Positions 4,690 through 58,687 of a stretch of DNA of 64,000 nucleotides are shown here, piece by piece (positions within the stretch are counted from its first letter, which is position 1; each line of letters begins with the position of its first letter). The stretch lies in assembly GCA_019058275.1 (NCBI GenBank), contig JAHLVW010000036.1, positions 32,001-96,000 on the forward strand, in the 5' to 3' direction. Under the pieces are notes generated by a model that worked only from the letters and a program-made list of their open reading frames with translations, was not told the DNA's origin and searched no databases. The translations under genes were made by a program, and so were the position numbers. The DNA is from Candidatus Heimdallarchaeota archaeon (GTDB lineage Archaea > Asgardarchaeota > Heimdallarchaeia > JABLTI01).

Positions 4690-4880
4690 TACTTATCTTC
4701 TCCAAGTTTGCTCGAAACACTTACTAATTTAACGACGCTGATTTGATGTTAATTAATTTTTGATATTAGGAGATGTTTTAGGGACTCAATAATAAATTTA
4801 CTCATCTTTTCACTATCGGAATAGATATAATTTGTTATAGTATAAGCAAAAACTAGGAATTAGCCTTTAAGGTGCACATA

Positions 4881-5633
4881 ATGAAAACCTCACGATCTAG
4901 AATCACAAAATTTCAAGACATAGAATCAACTCAGAAACAAGCTCATTTATACATTAAAGAAGGTAAAGCAACAGATGGAATGATTCTAATTTCAGAAACA
5001 CAGACTGGAGGAATTGGAAGACTGGATAGAGATTGGTCATCACCCAAAGGAGGATTGTGGATGTCTATAATCACACATAGGTCTATTCCTTTAGAATTCT
5101 TTCAAGGATTTTCAGTTAGAATTGGTTTAGCTCTAAGTAAGGTTTTGGAAGAATTTATCCAGATTCCAATCAAAGTAAAATGGCCAAATGATTTAATACT
5201 CAATGGTAAAAAAGTGGGCGGAATACTTGTTGATATAAGTTCCCAAGATGAATTTCTGCACTATTTAGTTTTAGGAATTGGGATAAATGTTAATGTCAAA
5301 TTAGACTGTCTACCAGATGAAGTAAGAAAGATAGCTACATCAATTAATTGTGAAACACAGAAAGAGCATCCAATTGAGAAAATTTTAGATTTACTTATCA
5401 GTGTATATGATCAAATCATTGATGATTTAGAAATCGGAGTAACCCTAGATCTATCAGATAATTGGGTAAAAAGATCCCATACATATAATTCAAATATAAC
5501 AGTCAAAACTGCTAATCAAATAATTGAGGGGATTGAAGTAGGCTTAACATCTAATGGTGAACTGATAATTAAAACCACAGACGGAGAGCACAAAATCTCA
5601 ATTGGTGAAATTGAACAGATAAGAAAAGCATGA
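4881..5633 (+). CDS. birA: Biotin--[acetyl-CoA carboxylase] ligase, monofunctional (no HTH)
   Basis: QTGGIGRLDRDWSSP, KWPND, KKVGGIL and GIGIN motifs. ATG 4881 follows AGGTG (the track starts at GTG 4872). Confidence 0.92.
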   Translation: MKTSRSRITKFQDIESTQKQAHLYIKEGKATDGMILISETQTGGIGRLDRDWSSPKGGLWMSIITHRSIPLEFFQGFSVRIGLALSKVLEEFIQIPIKVKWPNDLILNGKKVGGILVDISSQDEFLHYLVLGIGINVNVKLDCLPDEVRKIATSINCETQKEHPIEKILDLLISVYDQIIDDLEIGVTLDLSDNWVKRSHTYNSNITVKTANQIIEGIEVGLTSNGELIIKTTDGEHKISIGEIEQIRKA

Positions 5634-5634
5634 A

Positions 5635-6438
5635 CTAAATCACGCTTACTTTATCTGGAATTAAGTTAACATATAATGCTTCTTTTAGTAAATGCTCAAC
5701 AAAGAATCTTCTAATCAAGCTAAAAGTTTCATAACGTGCTAGGCAATTCGTTAAATTATGGTCAGCATTTCCAATGATTTCGAATCTTTTTGGTAATTGT
5801 GCTTTCTGGTAGAGTTTTCTTATACCATTGATTGGCATGAAATCATCTTTAGCACCAGCAAGTATCATTAAAGGTCTTGGTGCGATTTTGCTTATACAAT
5901 TAAGTGGGTTGTTTCCCTTAATATCATTGACCAATTTTTCTTTAATACCTGTTGTTGGCAAACGAACTAAACCAGTTAGAGCTAATCCCTCCCACATCGC
6001 ATCAAATTCTGGGTAATTGACCATAAATTCAAAATCAAAAAGTGGAGCAAGTAAAGCTAAAGCAGAAACTCTTTGATCTCTAGAAACATGACAAGCTGCA
6101 ATTGCGCCACCTAAGCTTACTCCAAGAATACCAATTCTTAGTGGATTAACTTTGGTATGATTTGTCAAATAATTAATTACAATATCTAGATTCGCGAGTG
6201 AAGTTTGTATTGAATTTACTCCTGTGCTATCATAGAAACCAGTGAAATGAAATGCAAAATATGCAATTCCTTCATCTGTTAACATAGTTGCTATTTCTTC
6301 TTCCTTTTCAAATTTGTTTGAAACTAACCCATGAGCTTTACAAACTGCGGGATATCTATCCATACCATTGTTTGGGAAAAAAAACATGCCACTTATGGTA
6401 CTATTATAATATTGAATTGTCACTTTTTCCTTTATCAT
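5635..6438 (-). CDS. Alpha/beta hydrolase (Ser-Asp-His), candidate thioesterase/esterase
   Basis: HG oxyanion motif, GVSLGG nucleophile, GAKDD acid, ADHNL His; third gene of the accC-accB run. Confidence 0.82.
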   Translation of the reverse strand: MIKEKVTIQYYNSTISGMFFFPNNGMDRYPAVCKAHGLVSNKFEKEEEIATMLTDEGIAYFAFHFTGFYDSTGVNSIQTSLANLDIVINYLTNHTKVNPLRIGILGVSLGGAIAACHVSRDQRVSALALLAPLFDFEFMVNYPEFDAMWEGLALTGLVRLPTTGIKEKLVNDIKGNNPLNCISKIAPRPLMILAGAKDDFMPINGIRKLYQKAQLPKRFEIIGNADHNLTNCLARYETFSLIRRFFVEHLLKEALYVNLIPDKVSVI

Positions 6439-6471
6439 TAATTGACTATATCTCCTGTTATAATATACAAT

Positions 6472-6948
6472 TTAACCAATCTTAATCTTCATGAGCAATT
6501 GTTTGGAAGAAACTTGATCACCTATACCTACTGCTATTCTTTCTATAATTCCATCAATTGGTGATAAAATCTCATTTCTCATTTTCATCGATTCTAATAC
6601 TAGAAGACATTGTTGATCTTTGACTTTCTCTCCAGCTTGAACCTTTATTTCCACGATTTTTCCTGCTATCGCTGCTTTGATATCTGTTCCTTTTTTGTGC
6701 TTGATATTTTTTCGACTCATTATTTGAGGAGCTGGTTTGAAATCAAAATCAATTTCTTTTCCATTTAGAAAAACAGTATTTTCCTTAAATTCAATCCTTA
6801 GCACTCTACCATTTACTAATACTCTGTAAAATCTGCCATTATAGAATACTTCGGGCTTGAATTGATAATCATTAATCTTGATGCCATTTGGAGATTGTTC
6901 TAAATCAAATTCAGAACCATGAATGCGAATCTTGTACTTTTTCTCCAT
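6472..6948 (-). CDS. accB: Biotin carboxyl carrier protein with N-terminal BT-like beta domain
   Basis: LESMKMRNEI biotinylation motif, AAIAGKIV, GDQV. Confidence 0.9.
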   Translation of the reverse strand: MEKKYKIRIHGSEFDLEQSPNGIKINDYQFKPEVFYNGRFYRVLVNGRVLRIEFKENTVFLNGKEIDFDFKPAPQIMSRKNIKHKKGTDIKAAIAGKIVEIKVQAGEKVKDQQCLLVLESMKMRNEILSPIDGIIERIAVGIGDQVSSKQLLMKIKIG

Positions 6949-6951
6949 GAT

Positions 6952-8424
6952 TTAGTCCCTCCCTATAGCATCCATCTTACTTTTCATTCGCCAATTATCT
7001 GATGTAGATGGAAGACTGAGTTTGCTTTTCTTTAATCCAACAGCAAATAGTGCTGATGCAATTGTGCAAACGTTTTTCTCAAGTTTCTCGAGTATTTTTC
7101 TATCTTGAATGAAATTTATACTAATATCACCCATTTGGAAATTAGCATCTTCAAATAATTGCTCGAAGAAAGAGATATTTGTAGGAAACCCAATAATAAC
7201 TAATTCTTTCAAAGCATTTTGTGCTCGTCGAATAGCTTCTTCTCTAGATTCATCTGCTACTATTAATTTTCCAATTAGTGAATCATAGCAATCTGGTATT
7301 GTGAATCCTTCATAGATTGAAGTATCAAATCGTACTTGAGGACCACCTGGTGCAACAAATCTGGAAACCATACCGGGTGTTGGTTGAAAATTCATAAGAG
7401 GATCTTCTGCATTGATTCGTAATTCTATTGCATGTCCCCTAAATTTAATATCAGACTGTTTAAACGACAATTCAGCACCTTGAGCAATCTTAATTTGCTC
7501 TTTAACAATATCCTTTCCAGTTAACATTTCAGTTACAGGGTGCTCAACTTGAATTCTTGGATTTATTTCATTAAACATAACCTGATTATTTTTGTAGAGG
7601 AATTCTATTGTACCAGCATTTTTGTAACCAAGAGTTTTTGCTAGTTTACAAACTAATGCACCAATTTCCTTTCTCTCTGCATTTGTAATAGCTGTTGATG
7701 GTGATTCTTCTAACAATTTCTGATTTCTACGTTGTATTGAGCACTCTCTTTCACCTAAATGAACAACATTTCCAAAATTATCAGCTAAGATTTGAAACTC
7801 AATATGCCTTGGTTGCTCAATAAATTTCTCTAGGAAAACACTACTGCGTCCAAATGCTAATTTAGCTTGAGCACTAGCATTTCTAAGTGCGTTTTTCAAA
7901 TCCTTTTTATTAAGAGCAACCTGAATTCCCATACCTCCTCCACCAAAAACAGCCTTAACTAATACTGGATAACCGATTTTTTCAGCTTCTCTAATTCCTT
8001 CTTTATAATTTGAGATAATATCAGAACCAGGTGGAACGGATAATCCAACTTCTATTGCCTTTTCCCTTGACTTGACTTTATTTCCAAGAAGTTCAATAAC
8101 TTCAGGTGCGGGTCCAATAAATGTAATTCCTTCATCTAACAATCTTTGAGCAAAAATCTCACTTTCAGACAGAAATCCATATCCTGGGTGAACACTTTCT
8201 ACTTCTTCGCGCTTGCAAATAGCTGCAATCTGATCAATATCTAGATATCCTGGAGTTTCCCCATCTTCAACTAGCTCAAAAGATTCATCAGCGAGCTTCA
8301 CGTGAAGTGCATTTCGATCAACAGGGGAATAAATTGCGAAGGTTTTGATAACGAGCTCACGAGCTGCTCGGATGATTCTTACTGCAATTTCACCTCTGTT
8401 TGCTACTAACAGAGTATTGAACAT
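6952..8424 (-). CDS. accC: Biotin carboxylase subunit of acyl-CoA carboxylase
   Basis: ANRGEIA, HPGYGFLSE, GGGGMG, ERECSIQRRNQK, RIQVEHPVTE, RINAEDP, YDSLIGK. Confidence 0.96.
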   Translation of the reverse strand: MFNTLLVANRGEIAVRIIRAARELVIKTFAIYSPVDRNALHVKLADESFELVEDGETPGYLDIDQIAAICKREEVESVHPGYGFLSESEIFAQRLLDEGITFIGPAPEVIELLGNKVKSREKAIEVGLSVPPGSDIISNYKEGIREAEKIGYPVLVKAVFGGGGMGIQVALNKKDLKNALRNASAQAKLAFGRSSVFLEKFIEQPRHIEFQILADNFGNVVHLGERECSIQRRNQKLLEESPSTAITNAERKEIGALVCKLAKTLGYKNAGTIEFLYKNNQVMFNEINPRIQVEHPVTEMLTGKDIVKEQIKIAQGAELSFKQSDIKFRGHAIELRINAEDPLMNFQPTPGMVSRFVAPGGPQVRFDTSIYEGFTIPDCYDSLIGKLIVADESREEAIRRAQNALKELVIIGFPTNISFFEQLFEDANFQMGDISINFIQDRKILEKLEKNVCTIASALFAVGLKKSKLSLPSTSDNWRMKSKMDAIGRD

Positions 8425-8438
8425 GATAACAATGCAAC

Positions 8439-8525
8439 TTTTACAGTCTTATATATCACTAACGCCTTTTTACTGTAAAACCATTTCAAAGGAGGAATTT
8501 TGCTGTAGAGACTTTTACAGTAAAA
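8439..8525. promoter_or_regulatory. Repeated palindromic operator-like motif TTTTACWGTAAAA in the divergent accC / carboxyltransferase-PKS promoter
   Basis: Perfect copies at 8468-8480 (TTTTACTGTAAAA) and 8513-8525 (TTTTACAGTAAAA); degenerate copies at 8439-8451 and 8498-8510. Confidence 0.65.
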
Positions 8526-8605
8526 AAAAGATACATATATGATTATCATAGTTCCGTTTCTAAATGCGGCTTGGCAACCGTTTACTGAAACAGGAGATTT
8601 ATGAA

Positions 8606-10207
8606 ATGAATATGAACTCAGAGCTTACTGAAAATAGAGAACTTTTACTCAAAAAAGGCAAAACTCAGCAGAAGGCTGAGGAATTATTGGAGAAAAGAGA
8701 AGTAGCTCTACAAAGTGGTGGAGAAAAAGCAATTCAAAAGCAGTTAGAGAAGGGCAAATTAACTGCACGTCAAAGAATTGAACTTCTACTAGATCCAGGC
8801 TCATTTGTTGAAACCAATATGTTTGTTAGACATAAAAACAGCAATTTTGGATTGGACAAGAAGAAATTCTACACTGATGGTGTTATTACTGGTTTCGGTC
8901 AAGTAAATGGCAAATTAGTTTATGTTTACAGTCAAGATTTCACAATTCTAGGTGGAAGTCTTGGTGAGGCTCATGCTAAGAAAATAACTCAATTAATGGA
9001 TCAAGCAGTGCAAAATGGTGCCCCAATAATCGGGTTTAATGATTCTGGTGGTGCAAGAATTCAAGAAGGTGCAAGTTCACTAGCAGGTTATGGTGATATT
9101 TTCATTCGAAATGTTCGTGCTTCTGGTATTGTTCCTCAAATTTCTTGCATTGTAGGTCCTTCTGCTGGAGGAGCTGTTTATTCACCTGCGCTTACAGATT
9201 TTATTGTTATGACAGAAGATACTTCTTATATGTTTGTCACTGGTCCCGTAGTCGTAAAAGCTGTTACAGGAGAGGAGACATCATTTGAAGAGCTTGGTGG
9301 TGCTTCCACACACAGCACTAATTCTGGAATTTCTCACCTGGTTGGCTCTGATGAAATTGAATCTATTGAGCTCATAAAAGTGCTCCTCTCCTATCTTCCT
9401 TCTAATAATTTGGAAGATCCTCCATTAAAGGACACTTCAACCATTAATGGATACGAATTTAAAATGTTAAATGATATCATACCAGATGACCCCCAAGAAC
9501 CCTATGATATGAGAGAAGTAATTCTACGCATTGTAGATAAAGGAAACTTCCTAGAGCTTCAAAAGAAATGGGCTCAAAATATCATAATTGGTTTTGGAAG
9601 ACTAAATGGTCATCCAATTGGCATTGTAGCCAACCAACCAAGTATACTTGCAGGAGCTTTAGACATTAATGCTTCAATCAAAGCAGCAAGATTCATACGC
9701 TTCTGTGATTCATTTAATATTCCAATTATCACTTTCGTAGATGTTCCAGGATTCTTACCTGGATTAGATCAAGAACATAATGGCATAATCAAACATGGAG
9801 CAAAGCTCATATTTGCATATGCTGAAGCTACTGTACCAAAATTAACAGTTATTACAAGAAAAGCTTATGGAGGAGCCTATATTGTAATGGGATCCAAACA
9901 TCTTGCAAATGACATTAATTTTGCATGGCCAACAGCTGAAATTGCAGTTATGGGTTCAGAAGGTGCAGTTCAAATCATTTACAGAAGAGATTTAGCAGCT
10001 GCTGAAGACAAAGAAGAAATGTTATTGAATCTGAAAAATGACTTTGCTAAAGAATTCAATAATCCTTACTTAGCAGCAGAAAGAGGTTACATTGATGACG
10101 TTATTCTTCCTAGTGAAACACGTCAAAAATTAATTGCTTCTCTCTGGCCTTTACTCAGAAAAAGAGAAAGAAGATTGAACAAAAAGCACGGAAATATACC
10201 CCTTTAA
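8606..10207 (+). CDS. pccB: Acyl-CoA carboxylase carboxyltransferase subunit (PccB/AccD-like)
   Basis: GKLTARQRI, DSGGARIQEG, AGGAVYSPALTD, DVPGFLPG, RKAYGGAY, KKHGNIPL. The likely start is ATG 8606 after CAGGAG (track start 8564). Confidence 0.93.
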   Translation: MNMNSELTENRELLLKKGKTQQKAEELLEKREVALQSGGEKAIQKQLEKGKLTARQRIELLLDPGSFVETNMFVRHKNSNFGLDKKKFYTDGVITGFGQVNGKLVYVYSQDFTILGGSLGEAHAKKITQLMDQAVQNGAPIIGFNDSGGARIQEGASSLAGYGDIFIRNVRASGIVPQISCIVGPSAGGAVYSPALTDFIVMTEDTSYMFVTGPVVVKAVTGEETSFEELGGASTHSTNSGISHLVGSDEIESIELIKVLLSYLPSNNLEDPPLKDTSTINGYEFKMLNDIIPDDPQEPYDMREVILRIVDKGNFLELQKKWAQNIIIGFGRLNGHPIGIVANQPSILAGALDINASIKAARFIRFCDSFNIPIITFVDVPGFLPGLDQEHNGIIKHGAKLIFAYAEATVPKLTVITRKAYGGAYIVMGSKHLANDINFAWPTAEIAVMGSEGAVQIIYRRDLAAAEDKEEMLLNLKNDFAKEFNNPYLAAERGYIDDVILPSETRQKLIASLWPLLRKRERRLNKKHGNIPL

Positions 10208-10254
10208 GCTCATCGTATATTAGTATATACTATCAATAAACAGGAGATAAAAAA

Positions 10255-13200
10255 ATGGTTTCTAGATATGATTTTGAAAATATCATAAGCAAACATAAAC
10301 CAATATTAGCTTACAATCCACAAGGAATTTCTGATGTCACTTTGATTAAGTCTGTAGTTGAATCTGGTGGTATTGGTCTTGTTGATTTAGAACGATTGCA
10401 AGATGATACGATTCAAGAATTATTACAAAATTGCTCCCAAAACATAAACGACTCATGGGGAATTAGAATTTCTTCTAAAGAACAATTGAAGCTTGTTCTT
10501 ACTCAACACGAAGATTCTTTTCCTTTGATTCTAGTTATTGGGGATTTCAAGCTTACTTCAACTGATTTACAAAAGATTAAAGCTAAATCTATTGTTCTTT
10601 TAGCTGAAGTGATTTCTTTAGAAGAAGCTTATGATAAGAAATGGGCTGAAGTATTTATTGTTAAAGGTAATGAGGCTGCTGGAAGAGTTGGTGATCAAAC
10701 ATCTTTCATACTCGCACAACAATTTGCAGATGCTGGATTGCCTTTTATAGTCCAAGGTGGTATTGGTCTTTATACTACCCCTGCTGTTTTTGCTGTTGGA
10801 GCTAAAGCTATTGTTTTGGACACTCAACTATTTCTTACACCTGAAAGTCCTCTTTCAAATCAAGTCAAAGAGTTCTTATCCAAATTAGATGCGACTGATA
10901 CAAAGGTATTGGGTGAATCCACTTCTAAGAAATATCGAGTTTATGCACGTTTAGGAACAAAAATAGTTCGTGAAATTGTCCAAAAGGAGAAGGAATTATT
11001 AGAGCTTACTAAAAAAGAGCGAACAAAGGTTTTCCAAGAAATTCTTCTTTCTAAAAGAGATATGTTTGATAAGGATGATATATCTAACTGTTTGATTCCA
11101 ATAGGTCAGGATATACCCTTTGCAGGAATTTTGACTGCAAAATTCAAAGATGTTAATGGTATAATTAATGGTCTGCTTAAGCAAGCAAAGAAGCAAATCA
11201 AAGAAGCCATAATGAATTATCCATTTAGAGAAAATACTGAGATTGCAAAAACCCTTGGAGTAAAATATCCCCTTATCCAAGGACCAATGGCTAATGTTTC
11301 TGAAAGTCCGAAATTTGCTAAAGTGACATCAAATGCAGGAGCATTACCATTTTTAGCTTTAGGTTCACTCTTTCCTAATCAAACCAGAACTTTAATTAGC
11401 GAAACCAAAAAGGCATTAGGTGAAAAACCATTTGGATGTGGATTAATTGGTCTTGAAGCTAATAAAACTGCTCGAGATGAACATCTGAAAATAATTAAAG
11501 AGCTAAAGCCACCTTTTGTCGTTGTTGCTGCCGGAACCATTGATCAAGCTAAAGAAATAATGAATTATGATATTGAAACATTCCTACATACACCATCACC
11601 ATTGATCTTCGCTGAAGCTATAGAATCAAACGTTTATTCCTTGATTTTAGAAGGAATGGAATGTGGTGGTCATATAGGTGTTTTAACAAGTTTTGTTTTA
11701 TGGGAATTATCTTTACACCAATTAGCAAAGTTAGAAGATAGCATAAAGAATAGCAATAAAAAAGTAACAGTTGCATTTGCAGGAGGAATTGGTGATAGAT
11801 TTTCTGCTGCAATAGCTGGTGTTGTTAGTTCTTCATTACCTGAATTAATGAATGGTGTCATGTGGGTTGGTTCTGCATATATTTTAGTAAAAGAAATTGT
11901 TGAAACAGGTGCAATTCAACCACTATACCAACAATTAGCATTAAATGCTAAAGAGACTATGGTCATGGGTGAAACAGTAAATACTCGAGCAAGATCTATC
12001 CCAACACCATTTGCAAGAGAAATCATCAAAAGAGAATTAGATAGAATTCATGAAGGTATCAGCTTAAAGGAACGCAAGCATCAGTATGAACGAGACAATT
12101 TAGGAGCAACTCGAGTAGCTGCATTAGGTGAAATCTGGAATCCAGATGGTGAAGACGACAAACCAAATAGGTTCATGTTTGTAGATGAAAAAGTGCAACA
12201 CAAGAAAGGGAATTATCTAATTGGTCAAATTGTCACAAGTCTTCGTTGTATACGATCGATTGATAATTTGCATGATGAGCTTATTATGAATTCCCAAAAA
12301 GTAGTTACTAAGAAGGGAATGGAATTAGCTGAAAAGCTGAGACAAATAAGTGAACAAGTGCTAAAAATCCCAGAAAAGAAAATAGATCCAGTATCAACAG
12401 ATATATCTTATCAAGAAGTTAATACTGATATATTTGAAAGTGAAGGAATAGCTGTTATTGGTTTAGGTTGCGTTTTTCCTGATGCACCAAATATCAAAAC
12501 ATATTGGAAAAATATACTCAAAAAAGTTTATTCCATAAAAGAAATCTCAAAGAAGAGATGGCATGGTGATATCAATCTATTCTATAGTGAAGATAGAAAT
12601 ATGCCAAACAAAACCTATGCAAAAATTGCTGCTGAAATTGAAGATCTTAAGTTCAATTCAATAGAATTCAAAATTCCACCAAAAGTTACAATAACAATGG
12701 GTAAAACCCAGAAACTAGCTTTAATGGCTGCAAAAGAAGCGTTAAGTGATTCTGGATTACTTGAAAAAGGTGTGGATAATAATAGAACTGCAGTTATCAT
12801 AGGTAATTCGATGGGTGATGAGATAAGAGGAGATCGTACTCGAAAGATCTATGTACCTGAATTCTTGGCTTCAATAGAAAAGACTTCCTCATTCAAGGAT
12901 ATTGACAAGAAATCTTGGGAAAATATCAGAAAAGAAGTATTCGATGATTATGAATCTAAACTATCACCAATTAATGAAGATGCTATGCCAGGGGAATTAT
13001 CGAACATCATCGCAGGGAGAATCGCTAATGTTTTCAATCTTCGCGGTAAAAGTATGACTACTGATGCAGCATGTGCATCAAGCTTAGCAGCATTGAATGT
13101 AGCAGTAAAAGGACTTCTTGATAAAGAATATAATGTAGCCCTTTGTGGAGGTGTAGATTGCTCTTTAGACCCAACGACATTTGTAAAGTTTGCAAAAATA

Positions 13201-16200
13201 GGTGCTATATCTGCAGAAGGATCTTTTCCATTTGATGCTAGAGCAAACGGATTTGTTATGGGCGAAGGAGCAGGTTTCTGTGTTCTAAAACGTTTATCAG
13301 AAGCTGTTAAAGATGGCAATAAAATTTACGCTGTATTTAGAGGATTTGGAGCTGCTTCTGACGGGAAAGGAAAAGGAATTACTGCCCCTAATCCTATCGG
13401 ACAAAAACTTGCAATAGAAAGAGCACTAGACCAAGCTGGTCTTACATTCTCTGATATACAATATGTTGAAGCACACGGTACAAGTACAACTGTAGGTGAT
13501 GTCATTGAAATGCAAGTACTGAACGAAATGGCTCAAGACATAAAACCAGCATCAATTGCTATAGGTTCTATTAAAAGTCAAATTGGTCACTTGAAGAGTG
13601 CCGGAGGTATTGCTTCAATAATAAAAACAGCTCTTGCACTGCACCATAAAATTCTACCACCTTCTATCAATTTTAAGACACCTAATCCAAAAATAGATTG
13701 GGCGACTTCACCATTTTACGTTAATATTAATAAACAAGATTGGAAGCTACCCTCAACTGGTTTTAGAGCTGCAGGGATTTCTTCTTTTGGTTTTGGTGGT
13801 ACAAACTACCATGCAATTATAGAGGAATACATTCCTGGTAAAACTAGAGGTCATTTACCAACCCTAATTAGTTCTAAGGAATTACAGAACATTCTTGCAG
13901 GAGCTCATATTGCTCAAGGATTAAGCACCTCAGCTGAATTTGAGAAGGTTCTAGATACCTCAAAATGGCAAGATTACATTGGTAAGAACATTTCACTAGA
14001 GATTGAACCAATCTTCTTTGGAGGTAATTCCGAACAAGAATTAATTGATTCCATAAATGACTATAAAGGTGCAATCCCTCAGAGCACATTTAAAACAGAT
14101 GGTACAGGATTTCGTGTAAGGAACTTAACTGTACAATCACTAGATAATCTATCTAAGAAAATTAAAGCAAGTATAACTTGTTCATCACTAGAAGATTTAC
14201 CAAAAACCTTAGATACTTTAGTTGAAGGTATAAAAGAGAAAAGAAAACGAAAATTGCTTATGAATAAGGGGATGTTCTTCAGTGATGATCATTCTCTTGG
14301 TAAAATAGCTTTTCTTTTCCCTGGACAAGGAAGTCAATATCTTCGCATGGGTAAAGAGCTATTTGAAAAATACACAATAGTTCAAGAGACTTTCAATGAA
14401 GCAGATGAAATTACAAAAGAACTTATCGGTTTTCCAATATCAGATGTAATTTTCACAAATGGAAAATCTGATGAAGAAGCAGTAGCGCAACTAAAAGAAA
14501 CAGAAATCACTCAACCAGCAATCTTTACTTTGAATATTGCTATTTTCAGATTACTGAAGTCCTTTGGTATAGAACCTGATTTTGTTGCAGGTCATAGCAT
14601 GGGTGAATATGCTGCTTTAGTTGCTTCAGGGATCCTTAGTCTTAGAGATGGATTCCTTGCTATTGTTCCTCGTGGACAAACTATGTCTAAATTCAAATCT
14701 AAGGATAAAGGAACGATGGCTTCAATAGGAGCTGGATATGAAGTTGTTGATGAAGTTCTCAAAACAATTGATGAATATGTTATTGCTGCTAATAAGAACT
14801 CACCAAAACAAACGGTAATATCTGGTTCTACTGTAGGTGTTAAAGCAGCTGTAAAAGCTTTTACAGATAAAGGTATTCCTGCTATTCCATTGCCTGTTTC
14901 AGCTGCATTCCATTCTAAAATAGTTGAAATAGCAGTTGTTGAATTCAGAAAAGCACTAAAGAAATTAAAATACAAAAAACCACTAATACTAATCTCCAGT
15001 AATGTTACTGGAGAATTGTATCCAACAACAAGAAAAGAAATAATCGATTTATTATGTGCTCAAGTATGCTCTCCTGTTGAATGGATAAAACAAATAACTG
15101 ACATGTATGAGAAACATGGAGCTAGAACATTCATAGAAATAGGTCCAAAATACGTTCTAACGAGTTTCAATCGAGGAATACTTGAGGAAAAAACTGATGT
15201 TTTATCACTTGCATCAAATCATCCTAAGAGAGGAGCTATTCAACATTTCTCTGAAGTGATTGGTGCATTAGGAACTTATTGCTATCCTATAAAGTATCCA
15301 GCATTAGAAAGTACAATATATACACCTGAATTCAGAAATCCACTCGAGAGATTTTATACGAAGAGAGTAATTAGTAGAGAATCAGTAAGACAAACTATCG
15401 TAAAGAAATCTCCTTTTGACATTCTAATAAATTCAAAACTCAAATCATTAGTCAAAGAGGACTCATTTAGTGACTATCTTAAATTACAAGCACCAGCAAT
15501 AAGTGCCTTTTTAGAAGTTGGCTATGAAACCTATAAAACAACGATTGCTGAAGCAATGAAAGAAAAGGAGAGGTTCGATAAACTCCAAATTAATACTGAA
15601 GCAATTGGAATAACTGGCGTATCCATAGGACTACCTGGCAGAGATAGGAAGGTATTTGATGAATCAAACTTTGATGCGATTCTTGCAGGAGAAAATTTCA
15701 TTGATCTTATACCAATGGAATATCGTAAAAAAATGGTTGATAAGAATATTGTACGTCTTGTCAAAGATGCTATTAAAGGTGCACAATTCCAGACAATCTC
15801 GGATGTTAGCGAAGTAATTAAATTAGCTGCACAGAAAGGCCAATTCAATCTTTCTGAAGAATATGGTGTAGATGTTGGTTTTACTGAGATTTTAGATATT
15901 ACATTTCAATTAGCTTTTGCAGCTGGTATTGAAGCTATGAGAGATGCAGGTATCCCACTGATGCCATTAAAAGTTAAAACCTCTGTAGGTAAGGAAATTA
16001 CAAAGGGATGGGCATTACCCGAGTCATTAAGAAATGAAACTGGAATAATTTTTGCATCAGCATTTCCTGCTTATAGTAATTTAATCTCAGTTGTATCTGA
16101 ATATCTAGCAGATAAATATGCAAATAAAAATCGAGAGGAAATAAATCTCCTTTTTGATGAGTTAATTGACCAAATTTCTAATAAAACCTCAAAAGAGAGG

Positions 16201-19200
16201 ATTCAACAGTGGTTCCTCAACAATAAGTCACAAATTGCTACTGATAAAGAGTCACAATTCCAATTCAGTAGGAAGTTCTTGTTTGAAATACTTTCAATGG
16301 GTCATTCACAATTTGCACAATTCATTAGAGCTAGAGGACCTAACACTCAAGTAAATGCTGCATGTTCATCTACAACCCAAGCTGTTGCTATAGCAGAAGA
16401 TTGGATAAGAACCAGTAGATGTAAAAGAGTAATAGTGATTGCTGCAGATGATGTAACCAATGAGGTCATGCTTGAATGGATTGGGTCTGGCTTTTTAGCA
16501 GTAGGTGCAGCAACAACACTTGAGAAAGTAGAAGAAGCAGCTTTACCTTTTGATAAAAGAAGGCATGGCATGATAATCGGAATGGGCGCTGTAGGAATAG
16601 TAATAGAAGCAGAATCAGCAATTCAAAAAAGAGGAGTAAAACCCATTGTTGACTTGCTGGGAACTCACATAGTGAATTCCGCTTTCCATGGAACAAGATT
16701 GGACAGAGATCATATCTCTTCACAAGTGGATGAATTTATTACAAATATTGAACGAAGACATGGAATCACTCGAGAGGAAATTGCCAGAGAACTGGTATTT
16801 GTTAGCCATGAAACATATACTCCAGCAAGAGGAGGAAGTGCTTCTGCTGAAGTAGATGCTTTAAGAAAAACATTTGGTAGCATGATTGACAAGATCGTTA
16901 TTGCCAATACAAAAGGATTTACAGGACATGCTATGGGTGCTGGTATTGAAGATGTCGTTGCTGTTAAGATTCTTGAAAAAGGAATTGTACCTCCTGTTGC
17001 TAATTGGAAAGAGCTTGATCCAGAACTTGGACACTTGAATCTGTCAAAAGGTGGAAAATATAACGTTAAATACGCTCTTAGATTTGCAGCTGGTTTTGGA
17101 TCTCAACTTACTCTAGTTTTGTACAGATTAAACACTTCCCTAAATCGTCTTGAAGGTGTTGGCTATGAACAATGGTTGAACTCTCTAGGTGGTACTAAAT
17201 CAACTATGGAAGTTGTAAAGAAAACCCTGCGTTTGAAGGAAGATCCAACTTTAATTAAACCTCAGCAAATTATTCCAAAAATTACTGCCCAAACTGGTAG
17301 TATGCAAGATGAGGGGATAGTTAAAGCTGTTGTTGATTTAATTTCCGAAAAAACTGGTTATCCAATAGATATGATTGAGCCAAATATGCATTTAGAGGAA
17401 GACTTGGGGATTGACACAGTAAAGCAAGCTGAATTATTTGGTGTCATAAGAACTAAATACAGTTTACCTCGAGAGGAAGGCGTAAGAATCCAAGAATACT
17501 TCTCAGTAAATAAAATCGCTGAATATATTACTTCTAGAATTTCAGGAGAAATTCAACCTTCGAGTGTAGACTCAGGTGTTCAAATACAACAGAGTACTTC
17601 CTCATCTCATAAAGAGATAGCAAAGGAAATTACTCTTCTAATTTCTGAGAAAACTGGTTATCCAACAGATATGATAGAAGCTGATATGGAATTAGAAGAA
17701 GATCTTGGTATAGACACAGTTAAGCAAGCAGAAATGTTTGGAATCATCAGAACAAAATGGAATCTACCAAGAGAGGAAGGTATTCGTATACAAGAGTATT
17801 CAACTGTCAATAAAATTGCTGAATATATTCTGAAAAGAGTTAGTGATGCTTCACAAACTTCAACTGAAGTAGTAGCTGAAACAACAACCTCAACAGAAGA
17901 TATCTATGTACCTGCTAAACGATTGGTCTTACAATTAATTGAATCACCTATGCCCAAAGCTGAAAAAATCAAATTAAAGGATAAAAAATTCATTATCGCT
18001 GGTGAAACAGGACCATTCACTACTAAACTAATTTCACTACTAGGAGACAAGAAAGCTAATCTAATAAAACATCTTGATTTGAAAACTCTTAACTCGAGAG
18101 AGAAAATACTCAAAGAAATACCTGAAGATGTTATAGATGGCTTGATTTACATTGAACCAAAAACTAGTCAGAAAAATAAGCACAACTTAACAGCTAGAAT
18201 CTTCTTCACTCTTTGTCGTGATATCAACTATTCTGATTCACCTTTAGTATTAACCATAAGCGAAAACATAACCTCTTTTGGTTGGAATGGTAAGCATAAA
18301 CCAATTTCTGGTTCACTTACTGGATTAACTAAAGCCATTGCTCGTGAATTTACAAATAGTAGAGTTAAATGTGTTGCGTGTAATGATCCTAAATATGCTA
18401 TCGATGAAATCTGTGCAGGAGATGGATCTATCGAAGTTTCCTATACAGAGGATGGTAAAAGAAAAGTTTTCGTTACAGTGGAAACTCCTGTTGAAGTTAC
18501 TGATCAACCGTTTACAATCTCAAAGGATGAATTGGTAATTATTACTGGTGGAGCTCTAGGAATTACTCATCAAATTTCTAAAGAATTAGCGAAAAGATAT
18601 CAACCCAAATTAGCTTTGGTTGGCATTGAAACTCTCCCAGATAATATTGATGAAATAGCCAATTATAGTGAAGAAAGGTTAGCTCAATTAAAAGATCAAT
18701 TGATTAGTGATTTAAAACAAAGAGAAGAAAGAGTTACTCCGGTTCTAATAGAAAAGGAATGGTCAAAAATCAGCAAAGCAATTGATGTTAAAAAAGGGAT
18801 CGAAGAGCTAACTGCACTAGGTAGTGTTGTAAAATATTACTCAACTAATGTCGTAAATACCGAACAAATGAAATCTACCATTGAACAAATTGGTGCTGAT
18901 TTTGGTCAAGAAATTATTGGTATAATTCATGGTGCAGGTTTAGAAATTTCTAGATTAATTAAAGATAAAAAACCAGAGGAATTTGATCTTGTTTACAATG
19001 TAAAAGCCATTGGCTTAGATAACCTAATTCAAAACATAAACATGAAGAAGGTAAAATTCGTCAAATGCTTTTCATCAGTTGCTGGTAGATATGGTAATGG
19101 TGGCCAAGTCGACTATTCAGCTGCTAATGATTATCTCTCCAAGAATTGTTGGCAATTAAGGTCAAAAGGAATTCGTGCAACTTCTATTTGTTGGTCTGCT

Positions 19201-31373: not shown

Positions 31374-32063
31374 TTATAATTTCCTTATCATTTTTGTGAA
31401 AATCGTTTGCACGGACTCAAGATGTTGTTTGTTTCTCCAGAGAGGTAAAGATATGAAGAAAAGATTAGTATCGGATAATTTCAAAGGTTCCTCAATTGAT
31501 AATTTCATAAGTTCATTAATCTTACTAGATTTAATTTTATTTTTAAATTGCTTGCAATTTTTCAAACAATATAATGCTTGTTCACCCATTATGACGATAG
31601 TATTTGGTTTAGTATTTTCAATTTCCTTCTCGAGAAAATAAGCACAGTTTTTGACAGTTTTATTACGAATTATTTTGTTATTGAATCTTTCCACACGACA
31701 TTTGATTGCAGTTGTGTAATAGTAGGATTTATTCTTGAACAATGTCAATTTATCTTTCTTAGCTATTTTGTTATTAATATTTAACAACCAAAAAAGATTC
31801 CATGATAAAGTTCCTAAAAGTGGTGATGGCGCTCCAAAAATTTTTTGAGACTCACACCAATTATAGAAATAACTGTCATTGATTATATTGCTTTTTTTGT
31901 TATGAAAAGGCGGAGATTCGCTTACAAATAAAACACTGGTTTTTTCAGGAATCCATGAAGTAGAATCATACACTACACTTGGCTTTGAATTTGTATGAAT
32001 AATTGCACTTGAAGAGTATTTGTCGGAATGATTAATACATTTCTGGCATTCATACAATTCCAT
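31374..32063 (-). CDS. Uracil-DNA glycosylase superfamily protein
   Basis: N-terminal CxxC, LFVSESPP, TAIKCR...NCAYFLEKEI...P..IVIMGEQA. Confidence 0.7.
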   Translation of the reverse strand: MELYECQKCINHSDKYSSSAIIHTNSKPSVVYDSTSWIPEKTSVLFVSESPPFHNKKSNIINDSYFYNWCESQKIFGAPSPLLGTLSWNLFWLLNINNKIAKKDKLTLFKNKSYYYTTAIKCRVERFNNKIIRNKTVKNCAYFLEKEIENTKPNTIVIMGEQALYCLKNCKQFKNKIKSSKINELMKLSIEEPLKLSDTNLFFISLPLWRNKQHLESVQTIFTKMIRKL

Positions 32064-35498: not shown

Positions 35499-37622
35499 AT
35501 GCAATTACTCTTCGATTACTTTTTAGAAAGACTTCCTATAGAGACTAGAGACTGTTTAATTTCAGCTACTTCTCATCAAACTGATCTCAATCCTAATACT
35601 AGATTGTTTAATGGTGTTTGTTTAGTTCTTGAGGAAGTGTTAGATGATATTAAAGAGCTAAAAAAACATCAAAATATGAAAATTAAAATTATCTCTGAAG
35701 GCTTCTTTTCAAAAACGAAAGAGAAAAGGAAGATAAGAACAAAGAGAAATCTAATTAAATCAAAAAGTCTAAATAAGGAAATTGCTTTTGAGTTAGCGTC
35801 ATTAAGCTGTTACCTCATACCAAAGATGAAAACAACAGGTGACTATTTATCTTTACTCAAAAGAATTAATCATCCATATATTGATTTGTATATTGCTTAT
35901 TTTGAGGAAGATCCAAGTAACTATCAAGCAACCAGATTGAAAGTGGAAGAAATTTCTAAGAAACTAAAAGAAAATAGGCAATTCAATAAAGAAATGAAAG
36001 CCCACCAAATTTCCATATGTTCATGGTTATATGGACAGCAAGGTGATGTTGTCATCTTAAAAGAAGTTTACAAATATGTACACAAACGTTTACCAAAAAC
36101 TGACAATATCGTTGAGATTCGTGCATTACAAGATGCTGCTTCAAATGCTATATGGTGGTTACTTCATTCAGGAGTAGAAGCTAATATAGAAGAAATGATT
36201 GACTTTATTGAACCATTTATTCAGAAATATAAGTTATATATGTCTTATACAGACTTTTTGAATCTGAAAGGAGCTGCTCTAAGTTATTTCGGAGAAAATA
36301 TTCATGCTATTCAAAGTTTTGAGAAACTTATGACTGAACATGAAAAATACAACGACGATTACAGATTGTCAATAGCAATAGGAAATCTCTCTTCATCATA
36401 TTTCGTTGAAGGCCGGATTTTGCAAGCAAAGGAAATGATGGAAAAAGCAATCAAGCTCTACAAAGAATCTACAGGTAAATGGCCATATCTCTATCTTACA
36501 GAAATAGGTAATATGTATTACTTAACAGGTGATCCTAGAGCTGAGGAGTCCTTTCTGCATGCATATGAAATCCAGAAAAAAGAAACATCCCTGTTTAAGG
36601 CTTTTATTTTATTTGAGCTGATACATTTCTATTTAAGAACTGAAGAAATAGAGAAAGCTAAGACTTATCTAAATAAGTTAAGTTCATTAGCAAAAGAGCT
36701 CCAAGCAATTTCTGTTAATGCTCAAGTAACCTACCTCCTTGGTTATTCCGAAATGCTAGATTTAAATTTCTCAAATGCAATAAAGTACATGCAAAATTCA
36801 CTAGAGTTAGGACGACAATCAAAGGATTTTGATTTAATATTGTCAAGCAATATTCTACTTGCTGCTATTTATTTACAAAGATATCGATTAAGTGGGCAAC
36901 AAGCAACATTGAATACTGCCCTCAATTATATTGATACCTCTATTCAATTAGCTGTTGAAAATCAACACAGACAGATTTTATCATTAGGCCTAATAATTCG
37001 CTCTCTATTACGTGCAAGCAAAGGTGAGTATGAGAAATCATTTGCTGACATTGAAAATGCAAAAGTAATCGTTAATGATATTGATTATGATAAATGGAAA
37101 GAGGATTTACTCAAAATCGAAGAAAAAATTCAGAACTCGCAACGCCAAGGTAAAATGGTTCTTGATCGAGAAGACGTCTTCAAATATATTCTTCCACAAT
37201 TTAAGACAATGCTGTCTTTCAAATTAGCTGAAAGAAAACCCATTGAATCAGAAGTTATAGGTTTGCTTATTATCACACAAAGCGGTGTGCCAGTTTATAC
37301 TAAATTAGGTGCTAATCTAAAAACAGACAAGATGATTCTCTCAGGTTTACTTACAGCAATTAACCATCTTTCTGAAAGCATTGGTGCTGGAAAAGATAAA
37401 GGTAGATTACAAGAAGTTCTATATGATAAATTCTGGATAACTGTTCAACCAATTAAAAATGGATTCGTAGCAGTTATAGCTTCAGAAGCAACTGCAGAAA
37501 TAAGAATGTTAGCAAATGGTATTGCAGATAGGATCAAAGAAGTTCCAATAGTAATTTCGGAATTAACCACTAATTTAGAAGATAAGATTCAAGATATCTT
37601 AGATCAGATGGTTATCAAATAA
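35499..37622 (+). CDS. TPR-repeat protein with C-terminal roadblock/longin-like domain
   Basis: Multiple TPR helices; C-terminal GLLIITQSGVPVY...ILSGLLTAINHLSESI...LQEVLY. Confidence 0.7.
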   Translation: MQLLFDYFLERLPIETRDCLISATSHQTDLNPNTRLFNGVCLVLEEVLDDIKELKKHQNMKIKIISEGFFSKTKEKRKIRTKRNLIKSKSLNKEIAFELASLSCYLIPKMKTTGDYLSLLKRINHPYIDLYIAYFEEDPSNYQATRLKVEEISKKLKENRQFNKEMKAHQISICSWLYGQQGDVVILKEVYKYVHKRLPKTDNIVEIRALQDAASNAIWWLLHSGVEANIEEMIDFIEPFIQKYKLYMSYTDFLNLKGAALSYFGENIHAIQSFEKLMTEHEKYNDDYRLSIAIGNLSSSYFVEGRILQAKEMMEKAIKLYKESTGKWPYLYLTEIGNMYYLTGDPRAEESFLHAYEIQKKETSLFKAFILFELIHFYLRTEEIEKAKTYLNKLSSLAKELQAISVNAQVTYLLGYSEMLDLNFSNAIKYMQNSLELGRQSKDFDLILSSNILLAAIYLQRYRLSGQQATLNTALNYIDTSIQLAVENQHRQILSLGLIIRSLLRASKGEYEKSFADIENAKVIVNDIDYDKWKEDLLKIEEKIQNSQRQGKMVLDREDVFKYILPQFKTMLSFKLAERKPIESEVIGLLIITQSGVPVYTKLGANLKTDKMILSGLLTAINHLSESIGAGKDKGRLQEVLYDKFWITVQPIKNGFVAVIASEATAEIRMLANGIADRIKEVPIVISELTTNLEDKIQDILDQMVIK

Positions 37623-57835: not shown

Positions 57836-58687
57836 TCACTCAAGTGGATTATTTTCTTCCTTTTCAACTTTTTTTGGTTTGAGATACATGTAGTAATAGA
57901 GAATAGCAAATGCTAATAATCCCATGCCTGTTGAAAAGAGAACATCTGAAGCAAAATGGGCTCCCACAACAACTCGAGAGCAAGCAACAAAAAAGCCCCA
58001 AAGGAAAACAAAACCAACAGTAATTATTTTCATAGGATCCTTAGTTTCTTTTTCTCTGACAAGTACAAGTAATGGCAGTACCATCCATCCCATTGCAGTA
58101 TGCCCTGATGGAAAACTCATATGACGTATAGTTGGTTCGGGTGGTAAATACCAAGGAGTATAAAATTCAAATCCCATGTCTACTAAATCTCTAAAACGAA
58201 CACGCCCACAAAGCAATTTGGTAATTTGAACAAAGCCTAATGGATTTATTATCGATAGTAGTAAAACTAACCATGCGAATTTTTTGTAATTATTCAAGTC
58301 TCTATTTAACTCTAAAAATGAAAAAATTAAAACTGAACCAGCAATAGATCCACAAATAGTGGCTGCTTTGGGAGTATAATCAAATAAGAAGTAAATCATC
58401 AAGGTAATTCCAATTGCACTTATAACAAAAGCTGGTATTTTTTGCATTTTAGTTTTCTTAATAAAGCTACCAAAAAGCACTGCAATTGATATGCCAATTA
58501 ATCCAAATCCTGGTGTTTCTCCATAATCCGCTCCAAAATTTCCCCACCATGATTCAAAATTAACAACTGCATTAGAAATTTGAAGATCATATATACCAAA
58601 AACAATAGCAAGAATAATCCAAGGAATGAATATTGCCAATAAGGCAATTAAAAGAAATTGCTGTCGCTTATTTTCCAAAACATTCAT
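57836..58687 (-). CDS. PAP2 family membrane phosphatase
   Basis: KLLCGRVR, SFPSGH, SRVVVGAHFASDV. Confidence 0.9.
   Translation of the reverse strand: MNVLENKRQQFLLIALLAIFIPWIILAIVFGIYDLQISNAVVNFESWWGNFGADYGETPGFGLIGISIAVLFGSFIKKTKMQKIPAFVISAIGITLMIYFLFDYTPKAATICGSIAGSVLIFSFLELNRDLNNYKKFAWLVLLLSIINPLGFVQITKLLCGRVRFRDLVDMGFEFYTPWYLPPEPTIRHMSFPSGHTAMGWMVLPLLVLVREKETKDPMKIITVGFVFLWGFFVACSRVVVGAHFASDVLFSTGMGLLAFAILYYYMYLKPKKVEKEENNPLE

Follow-up and report, generated by a model that had tools for sequence, protein, structure and literature searches.

Can an archaeon of the Heimdall group build fatty acyl chains de novo on acyl carrier proteins (ACPs)? The question is raised by a locus in the Candidatus Heimdallarchaeota assembly GCA_019058275.1, in which a fused synthase of 3,581 aa lies beside a set of genes for a biotin-dependent carboxylase. 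The window, that is, the whole stretch of DNA analyzed here, comprises 64,000 nucleotides (positions 32,001 to 96,000 of contig JAHLVW010000036.1; G000:C22:32001-96000, within a 153-kb contig), and all positions given without a contig, locus, or accession label are window coordinates. Archaea are described in textbooks and in recent papers, among them a 2024 preprint (10.1101/2024.07.05.601840), as being without fatty acid synthase (FAS) I, FAS II, ACP, and ACP synthase; for the lineages discussed here, this statement is contradicted by the predicted content of the locus. Earlier Asgard genomics had found the acyltransferases PlsY and PlsC but no source of acyl chains, and these enzymes were hence judged unlikely to take part in membrane synthesis (PMC6431249).

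The explanation toward which we lean, with a little more confidence than doubt, is that the locus encodes a native, self-contained ACP-dependent FAS, the product of which would be freed by a hydrolase and passed by a fatty-acid kinase to PlsY. In this scheme, BirA would biotinylate the biotin carboxyl carrier protein (BCCP), and biotin carboxylase (BC), BCCP, and carboxyltransferase (CT) would together produce malonyl-CoA. The fused Sfp-type phosphopantetheinyl transferase (PPTase) would prime both carrier domains, the acyltransferase (AT) would load malonyl units, and two ketosynthases (KS), a ketoreductase (KR), a dehydratase (DH), and a FabK-type enoyl reductase (ER) would carry out repeated cycles of full reduction, yielding a largely saturated acyl chain. 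Comparative genomics further suggests that a Ser-Asp-His hydrolase may free the chain as a fatty acid, that DegV (FakB-like) proteins may bind it, that a FakA-like kinase may form acyl-phosphate, and that PlsY-type acyltransferases may esterify the chain to glycerol phosphate; where related families lack the hydrolase, the chain may go to PlsC-type acyltransferases. From the observed gene content, intact motifs, and conservation, we infer the chemical steps, the chain length, and the final lipid.

Gene content of the locus

Six open reading frames (ORFs), each intact, lie back to back in the order BirA, alpha/beta hydrolase, BCCP, BC, CT, and synthase. The original prediction, made by a model from the letters of the sequence, had described this contiguous row; all six ORFs are where it had placed them, and the Pfam and NCBIfam models used for gene and domain calls agree with each assignment. 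The first gene (4872–5633, + strand) encodes a BirA-type biotin-protein ligase without the repressor helix-turn-helix (PF03099, PF02237; TIGR00121 birA_ligase, 166 bits against a cut-off of 83). BCCP (6472–6948, − strand; PF00364) carries the biotinyl-lysine motif ESMKM and is the predicted substrate for biotinylation by BirA. The BC subunit (6952–8424, − strand; PF00289, PF02786, PF02785) matches acetyl-CoA carboxylase BC models with about 600 bits, and the acyl-CoA CT of the 12S/PccB type (ORF open over 8564–10207, + strand) matches PF01039 Carboxyl_trans with 650 bits and belongs to the TIGR01117 family. The biotin-dependent acyl-CoA carboxylase set is therefore complete, comprising BC, BCCP with its biotinyl-lysine motif, CT, and a biotin ligase.

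CT and the synthase share a ribosome-binding site, as had been proposed. The word AAACAGGAGAT, of which the window holds three copies against 0.04 expected, ends 6 nt ahead of the synthase ATG (10238–10248, + strand) and 7 nt ahead of an in-frame ATG at 8606 (8588–8598, + strand). Because the latter copy falls within the longer ORF, CT probably starts at 8606 and not at 8564.

Between BirA and BCCP lies an alpha/beta hydrolase (5635–6438, − strand; Hydrolase_4 type in Pfam), the catalytic residues of which, Ser108 (in GxSxG), Asp198, and His227, are invariant in 8/8 aligned orthologues. Among solved structures, esterase 7q4h aligns with this protein, and Hydrolase_4-type esterases resemble it. 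An orthologue adjoins the synthase in families f1 (which contains the window's genus), f2, f13, and f26, and strong orthologues are confined to synthase-bearing families. The protein is thus a candidate chain-release thioesterase.

Domains and catalytic residues of the synthase

The synthase gene (10255–21000, + strand) is a single open frame, present in one copy in the assembly. Its Pfam domains (NMO/FabK twice, KS, AT, KS, PP-binding twice, KR, PS-DH, and ACPS) give the order degenerate ER, FabK-type ER, KS, AT, KS, ACP, ACP, KR, polyketide synthase (PKS)-type DH, and Sfp-type PPTase; all are on the + strand, and catalytic residues were checked against solved structures and across Asgard and bacterial relatives. 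Every domain of the ER-ER-KS-AT-KS-ACP-ACP-KR-DH-PPTase order originally predicted is in place, with the correction that the first ER is degenerate. This FabK/NMO-like domain (residues 1–320; 10255–11214) retains an NMO match, but has AGR where FabK structures have GGH, and the position of the FabK catalytic His, occupied by Arg here, holds R, K, L, I, V, F, or E in relatives. Two working ERs are ruled out by the missing His and by the lack of conservation at its position, and the domain is probably structural. The second domain (residues 328–600; 11236–12054) is a FabK-type flavin mononucleotide enoyl reductase (TIGR03151 FabK) in which GGH is kept in 20/20 Asgard sequences.

Both KS domains are complete. 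KS1 (residues 730–1140; 12442–13674) has Cys940, His1074, and His1112, a triad kept in 24/24 Asgard and 78/78 other sequences. Alignment of KS2 (residues ~1990–2300; 16222–17154) to FabF structures identifies Cys2037, His2185, and His2225, and this Cys-His-His triad, found intact in 24/24 Asgard sequences and likewise in 63/63 others covering the sites, rules out that KS2 is a chain-length factor (CLF). The AT (residues 1353–1649; 14311–15201; PF00698) is of malonyl type, its best single-enzyme model is FabD, and the Ser of GHSxG and the AFH motif are kept in 24/24 Asgard and 77/77 other sequences. As this combination favors malonyl over methylmalonyl units, methylmalonyl extender units are not favored, and the "(methyl)malonyl-CoA supply" of the original prediction is more probably one of malonyl-CoA, which the carboxylase set would provide.

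Of the two carrier domains, ACP1 spans 17326–17544 and ACP2 spans 17626–17844, and both contain the motif LGIDTVK, with Thr at the attachment site. Throughout the synthase family the phosphopantetheine site holds Thr in 191 of 199 ACP domains and Ser in 5, indicating that Thr at the site of the arm is a family trait and not an error. The reductive domains that follow are equally intact: catalytic Tyr and Asn of the KR (residues 2761–2984; 18535–19206; PF08659) are kept in 12/12 sequences, and in the PKS-type, double-hotdog DH (residues 3052–3321; 19408–20217; PF21089, PF14765) His3082, Pro3091, Glu3247, and Gln3251 (His, Pro, ExxxQ) are invariant in 12 Asgard sequences. The Sfp-type PPTase (residues 3371–3536; 20365–20862; PF01648) aligns with Sfp and AASDHPPT and keeps the Asp, Glu, Lys, and Glu residues of GIDLE and WTAKEA in 12/12.

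A tblastn search of the assembly with the synthase's own domains turned up no further KS, AT, ACP, or PPTase, and FabA/FabZ (PF07977) has no match in the synthase or in five genomes including the window's own. The earlier description of a self-contained locus is therefore borne out: biotinylation, carboxylation, AT, priming, KS, KR, DH, ER, and hydrolase functions are all represented with intact catalytic residues. At the genomic level, this complete gene set supports the proposal that an Asgard archaeon has the potential for acyl-chain synthesis, the chemistry of which would follow the scheme given above.

Elsewhere in the window's genome there is a stand-alone PKS-type dehydratase of 421 aa (G000:C96:61320-62586; L262:7321-8586), 40% identical to the synthase DH over 294 residues. 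It adjoins a cupin and an amidase and might work with the synthase in trans.

Distribution and origin

The contig belongs to the Heimdall group of Asgard archaea, in line with the original prediction of a probably Asgard chromosome; the assignment is based on named relatives and on archaeal flanking genes. These relatives include a genome of the same genus (NCBI record "Candidatus Heimdallarchaeota archaeon HM7_B34", contig JABCTZ010000036.1) and, from the same class, the complete chromosomes of Ca. Heimdallarchaeum aukensis PM71 and Ca. H. endolithica PR6 (CP084166.1, CP084167.1). In a first set of relatives the synthase occurs in 27/41 genomes, and by family in 11/11 genomes of f1, 10/10 of f2, 3/3 of f4, 1/1 of f5, and 1/1 of f6, against 0/14 of f3. 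Sampling across the phylum found it in 49/251 Asgard genomes; outside the class it is present in two families (5/54 genomes, in f13, and 3/5 genomes), while f10 has it in 0/59. Over a deep divergence, with identities of 45–75%, the 10.7-kb frame stays open. The synthase cluster is also present in three closed genomes, those of Ca. Heimdallarchaeum aukensis, Ca. H. endolithica, and Ca. Harpocratesius repetitus FW102, the last being among the synthase-bearing genomes from outside the class.

In Ca. H. aukensis PM71 (L154; CP084166.1, ~482.9–499 kb) the synthase is divided into two overlapping ORFs of 1510 and 2729 aa, and the KS region is matched twice. Identical copies of the hydrolase occur in this locus at 495573 and 498270, consistent with a local duplication or with assembly of a repeat.

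Database searches with the single protein returned distant bacterial matches only, whereas an alignment query returned named Asgard relatives and relatives of the "Type R" synthases discussed below. In a KS tree built by quick search, with SH-aLRT support only and without the "Type R" type strains among its sequences, 20/20 KS sequences of the class form one clade (SH-aLRT 97), the sub-clades of which follow the genome families. The neighbors of the Asgard clade are Elusimicrobia and a large bacterial clade (Chloroflexota, Actinomycetota, Acidobacteriota), and a Thermoplasmatota branch lies deeper. The tree leaves the branching among Asgard, Elusimicrobia, and the large bacterial clade unsettled and does not name a donor.

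The composition of the island, a check for which the original prediction had called, shows no break: among 16-kb chunks of the same genome, the island ranks at the 89th percentile for tetranucleotide distance from the genome mean, within the genome's range, and its GC content is 0.345 compared with 0.325 for the genome, a metagenome-assembled genome (MAG) of 4.12 Mb with an estimated contamination of 6.8%. Together, distribution, phylogeny, and composition indicate that the synthase is native and vertically inherited in the class, with contamination or chimerism excluded for practical purposes.

Linkage of the carboxylase genes to the synthase

Synteny of the synthase with the carboxylase and birA genes, which had been suggested as a check, is found in other archaeal genomes, the cluster being kept in f1, f2, f13, f26, and the closed genomes. 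Within the genus the whole row from BpsA, SpeD, and BirA through hydrolase, BCCP, BC, CT, and synthase to a tetratricopeptide repeat (TPR) protein is conserved. The order in f1 is BirA, hydrolase, BCCP, BC, CT, synthase; in f2, f13, and f26 it is BirA, CT, synthase, hydrolase, followed by convergent BCCP and BC, so that birA is clustered with the synthase in all four families. Family f4 has the order BC, BCCP, CT, synthase, and a FabI-type ER. The f4 synthase begins at the KS and lacks the fused ER, and a stand-alone gene for a FabI-type enoyl-ACP reductase lies directly behind it (L161:11923-12714, L157:1428-2261). That an unrelated enzyme supplies enoyl reduction in this family shows that this step, and hence a saturated chain, matters to the system.

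CT immediately precedes the synthase in all Asgard arrangements, and orthologues of at least 56% identity are present in every synthase-bearing relative, while f3, which lacks the synthase, has only paralogues of 33–35%; some relatives hold a second CT copy elsewhere. A CT 61–64% identical to the window's also lies directly upstream of the synthase in 5/6 Thermoplasmatota loci (MAGs L080, L089, L094, L109, and L119). By comparison, CT was found within 3 kb of the synthase homologue in none of about 70 bacterial loci. The archaeal versions of the synthase thus come with a predicted malonyl-CoA supply of their own, and CT and synthase may have been passed jointly among archaea.

Comparison with known systems

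The closest known system, as judged by domain content and KS phylogeny, is the "Type R" Pfa-like secondary lipid synthase, described as KS-MAT-CLF-ACP(3-6)-KR plus PPTase (MAT, malonyl acyltransferase) from Koribacter, Solibacter, Elusimicrobium, and Roseiflexus (Shulse & Allen 2011; PMC3098273). As in "Type R", the order in the window is KS, malonyl-AT, a second KS-like domain, tandem ACPs, and KR, together with a PPTase, and the window KS falls within a group holding Roseiflexus, Korobacteraceae, and Elusimicrobia, with more distant Pfa-like and PKS sequences outside. Thr-type ACPs and a complete second KS are common to the whole "Type R" KS group, and the Koribacter cluster also has an acetyl-CoA carboxylase gene (PMC3098273). 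There are, however, several differences. The window chain contains a fused PPTase, which in "Type R" is a separate downstream gene, as well as the FabK-type ER with its degenerate copy and a PKS-type DH; the position termed CLF holds a complete KS in the window and in bacterial relatives; and the locus adds a full biotin carboxylase set, BirA, and a hydrolase. Moreover, the host is an archaeon in which no FAS II was found, so that the synthase cannot be "secondary" to another fatty-acid synthase.

The PfaABCDE synthases of Shewanella, Moritella, and Schizochytrium, which make polyunsaturated fatty acids (PUFAs), share with the window an iterative type I KS-AT-ACPn-KR-DH chain (PfaA), an ER of the NMO/FabK fold (PfaD), and an Sfp-type PPTase (PfaE). 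PfaA (TIGR02813) is also the best NCBIfam model for the synthase, at 868 bits, although this is below the cut-off of 1010. Unlike PUFA synthases, which have five or more ACPs, the window synthase has two, and its second KS keeps the cysteine. There is no FabA-type dehydratase/isomerase domain in the protein or the genome, and the step that introduces a cis double bond is therefore missing. A PUFA synthase identity is ruled out on these two grounds, the lack of a FabA-type DH and the sub-threshold PfaA score.

Animal, fungal, and mycobacterial type I FASs likewise place the activities of the elongation cycle on one polypeptide, and the PPTase is fused as in the fungal FAS alpha chain. They differ from the window synthase in domain order and domain families and in having an ER of the medium-chain dehydrogenase/reductase type, or the fungal ER in its TIM-barrel context, rather than the FabK type; the window synthase is also without a thioesterase or malonyl/palmitoyl transferase domain and has two KS. 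No specific sequence relationship to these FASs was seen in any search made. A different archaeal route has been proposed from the thiolase/DUF35 complex of Sulfolobus acidocaldarius, which is ACP-independent, and many thiolase/DUF35 pairs occur in Asgard genomes (10.1101/2024.07.05.601840). Unlike the window system, that route uses CoA esters and does without malonyl-CoA, ACP, and PPTase.

Our literature search on the cluster returned a single find, a remark from 2020 about a "potentially novel PKS cluster," and searches on Heimdallarchaeia with malonyl-CoA and on DegV with Asgard returned nothing relevant. The paper on the closed Heimdallarchaeum genomes (PMC8813620) points out that PlsC is lacking and is silent on the synthase.

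Possible release and use of the acyl chain

A possible route downstream of the hydrolase is encoded in the window's genome at G000:C69:78076-80769 (L173:2076-4769), where the genes for a FakA-like kinase (313 aa, with Dak2 and the FakA middle domain), a DegV, and a PlsY form an operon. The PlsY is an equivalog-level match (TIGR00023, 156 bits against a cut-off of 137). The operon recurs in a same-genus genome and in f3 (G010:C6, G033:C6). The window's genome has 13 PlsY and 22–24 DegV matches in all, several of them in adjacent pairs (e.g., C8:15919-19462), and in Ca. H. aukensis a PlsY adjoins the birA-CT-synthase cluster. The combination of kinase, DegV, and PlsY in one operon is reminiscent of the Firmicutes FakA/FakB route with PlsY, with PlsX not found in five genomes; it differs from that route in the multiplied DegV and PlsY, in the shortened kinase, and in that no PlsC follows.

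The relevant genes vary among families. In f1, f2, and f5 the hydrolase orthologue is present, PlsC was not found (0/12, 0/10, and 0/1 genomes), and there are 5–22 DegV and 2–13 PlsY. In f4 and f6 there is no hydrolase orthologue, PlsC was found, and DegV and PlsY number 2 and 1–2; f3, which has no synthase, also lacks the hydrolase orthologue and has PlsC, with 0–1 DegV and 0–2 PlsY. This pattern fits two modes of unloading the synthase, namely hydrolytic release followed by the kinase and PlsY, or direct transfer of a PlsC type.

Archaeal lipid genes in family f1

The G1PDH (glycerol-1-phosphate dehydrogenase, EgsA) gene was sought with an in-class protein (itself scoring 416 bits against the NF002022 cut-off of 413) and with the NF002022 model. 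It is full-length in 29/29 genomes of other families, while the 12/12 f1 genomes, with completeness of 64–93%, gave only partial matches of 32 bits or less, which is not proof of absence. The weak Fe-ADH_2 matches in the window's genome are ordinary iron-containing alcohol dehydrogenases and were rejected as G1PDH candidates. Geranylgeranylglyceryl phosphate synthase (GGGPS, of the PcrB family) had no match in the 12 f1 genomes with PF01884, TIGR01768, or two in-class proteins, although Heimdall GGGPS scores are low and a more divergent form is possible. A 2019 preprint reports "Gerdarchaeota" MAGs without G1PDH (10.1101/858530), and family f1 may be this published group.

Alternative explanations

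Several observations weigh against a FAS that delivers free fatty acids to PlsY. To our knowledge, no phosphopantetheine arm has been shown on a carrier-site Thr, and no studied carrier protein uses Thr there. The DH is of polyketide type, and both KS domains are complete; multiple KS-type domains are also a feature of PUFA and glycolipid synthases. On the downstream side, the FakA-like protein is without the C-terminal third, matching the first 300 of ~530–550 FakA positions, and the operon DegV in the window's genome contains an in-frame TAA. The bacterial route is incomplete, in that PlsC was not found in the 12 genomes of f1 and PlsX was not found in five genomes, although the latter fits an acyl-phosphate formed by the kinase and not from acyl-ACP. 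GpsA, as a source of glycerol 3-phosphate (G3P), was not found, the sole weak match being a ketopantoate reductase; bacterial PlsY takes both glycerol 1-phosphate and G3P (PMC13400652). The phyletic patterns described above come from few independent lineages. A true CarS equivalog is kept (NF003114, 163 bits against a cut-off of 148; G000:C30:6397-6900), and isoprenoid lipids may still make up the main membrane; the sole lipid analysis of a cultured Asgard archaeon, as cited in PMC13400652, reported archaeal lipids only. Finally, the product of "Type R" is unknown in any organism (PMC3098273).

Some of these observations would be accounted for if the synthase made a specialized secondary lipid for the envelope or for signaling, such as a hydroxy or very-long-chain acid, a diol, a glycolipid aglycone, or a hydrocarbon precursor, with a bulk membrane of isoprenoids and with DegV and PlsY salvaging fatty acids from outside. 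In the bacteria that hold it, the closest family is a "secondary" synthase next to FAS II (PMC3098273), and the PKS-type DH, the two complete KS, the stand-alone DH paralogue, the retention of CarS, the occurrence of the FakA-DegV-PlsY operon in the synthase-less f3, and the patchiness of the cluster outside the class (f13, f10) could all be read in this way. However, the genome yielded no further fatty-acid machinery, a non-orthologous enzyme has taken over the ER function in f4, the release hydrolase and the DegV expansion co-vary, and neither G1PDH nor GGGPS was found in 12/12 f1 genomes. We regard a specialized product as possible but doubtful. A different doubt concerns the carboxylase, which might serve central carbon metabolism (propionate/methylmalonyl-CoA or CO2 fixation) and be a mere neighbor of the synthase, given that the mmdA/PccB family (TIGR01117) of its CT includes propionyl-CoA carboxylases and decarboxylases and that some relatives have the second CT copy elsewhere. 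This is quite improbable in view of the place of CT, immediately before the synthase in every Asgard arrangement as well as in Thermoplasmatota, the clustering of BC, BCCP, and BirA that persists after rearrangement, the ribosome-binding word common to CT and synthase, and a CT orthologue that is missing exactly where the synthase is missing.

It could also be supposed that the system is a relic that makes nothing, as Thr stands at both attachment sites and such ACPs might not be primed. Thr is, however, the rule of the family across archaea and many bacterial phyla, with Ser in few domains, and all catalytic residues and the 10.7-kb frame have been kept through divergence to 45–75% identity; we give this possibility hardly any weight. 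As for misbinned or misassembled bacterial DNA, or a very recent transfer, it is true that the relatives of every part are mainly bacterial, that GC is 2 points above the genome mean, and that the MAG has a contamination estimate of 6.8%. Against this, archaeal genes stand on both sides of the island in a 153-kb contig, the tetranucleotide distance does not leave the range of the genome itself, the flanks from BpsA-SpeD to the TPR protein are kept across the genus, the cluster occurs in three closed Asgard genomes, and the class sequences form one KS clade, so that a foreign origin of this kind can be set aside with near certainty.

Implications for archaeal membrane lipids

Eukaryotes arose within the Asgard archaea and use fatty-acid ester lipids. 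The locus is a candidate for an acyl-chain source in their archaeal kin. In the window's genome a release enzyme, a fatty-acid kinase, and many PlsY stand alongside it, and in the family of this genome searches did not recover the archaeal backbone enzyme. The bearing on the lipid divide that the original prediction claimed is something we legitimately infer from this gene set, and not a result. In its boldest form, the reading would make the megasynthase the main source of membrane chains, with a membrane largely of fatty-acyl ester glycerolipids formed through the hydrolase, the kinase, and the multiplied PlsY. It draws on G1PDH, GGGPS, and PlsC not being found in f1, and we consider it rather unlikely; if true, a living archaeal lineage near eukaryotes would already have crossed the lipid divide by its own route. 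Because the system consists of few cloneable pieces and enrichments of the closed-genome relatives exist, the question of fatty-acid lipids in the archaeal kin of eukaryotes is directly testable. The putative Thr-type carrier domains and the predicted fully fused, FAS-like chain with two active ketosynthases are enzymological issues on the side.

Flanking genes and other features of the window

The genes around the island are archaeal, as the original prediction had described them. They include BpsA_C, an AdoMet decarboxylase (SpeD), a THUMP/ThiI protein, a small winged helix, and an RPB9/RpoM zinc ribbon (26.3 bits against a cut-off of 25.2); the match to an archaeal pilin N-terminus is weak. 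Directly 3' of the synthase lies the TPR (MalT-like) protein of 617 aa (21165–23018, + strand), which has counterparts of 70–72% identity at this position in two genomes of the genus. As this position is kept within the genus only, its membership of the synthase system is uncertain. A second large TPR (MalT-like) protein, of 707 aa, is encoded at 35499–37622, and a PAP2-family lipid phosphate phosphatase gene lies at 57836–58687, ~37 kb from the synthase; the latter is possibly relevant to lipid metabolism and is linked to the synthase by no evidence here.

The divergent promoter region between BC and CT (8425–8605) contains a 14-nt perfect inverted repeat and two copies of the palindrome TTTACWGTAAA (8469–8479 and 8514–8524), the only two matches in the window, where 0.08 are expected. 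The palindrome occurs in the same intergenic region of 7/7 same-genus loci and in 0/250 other loci, and the pair looks like the operator of some regulator.

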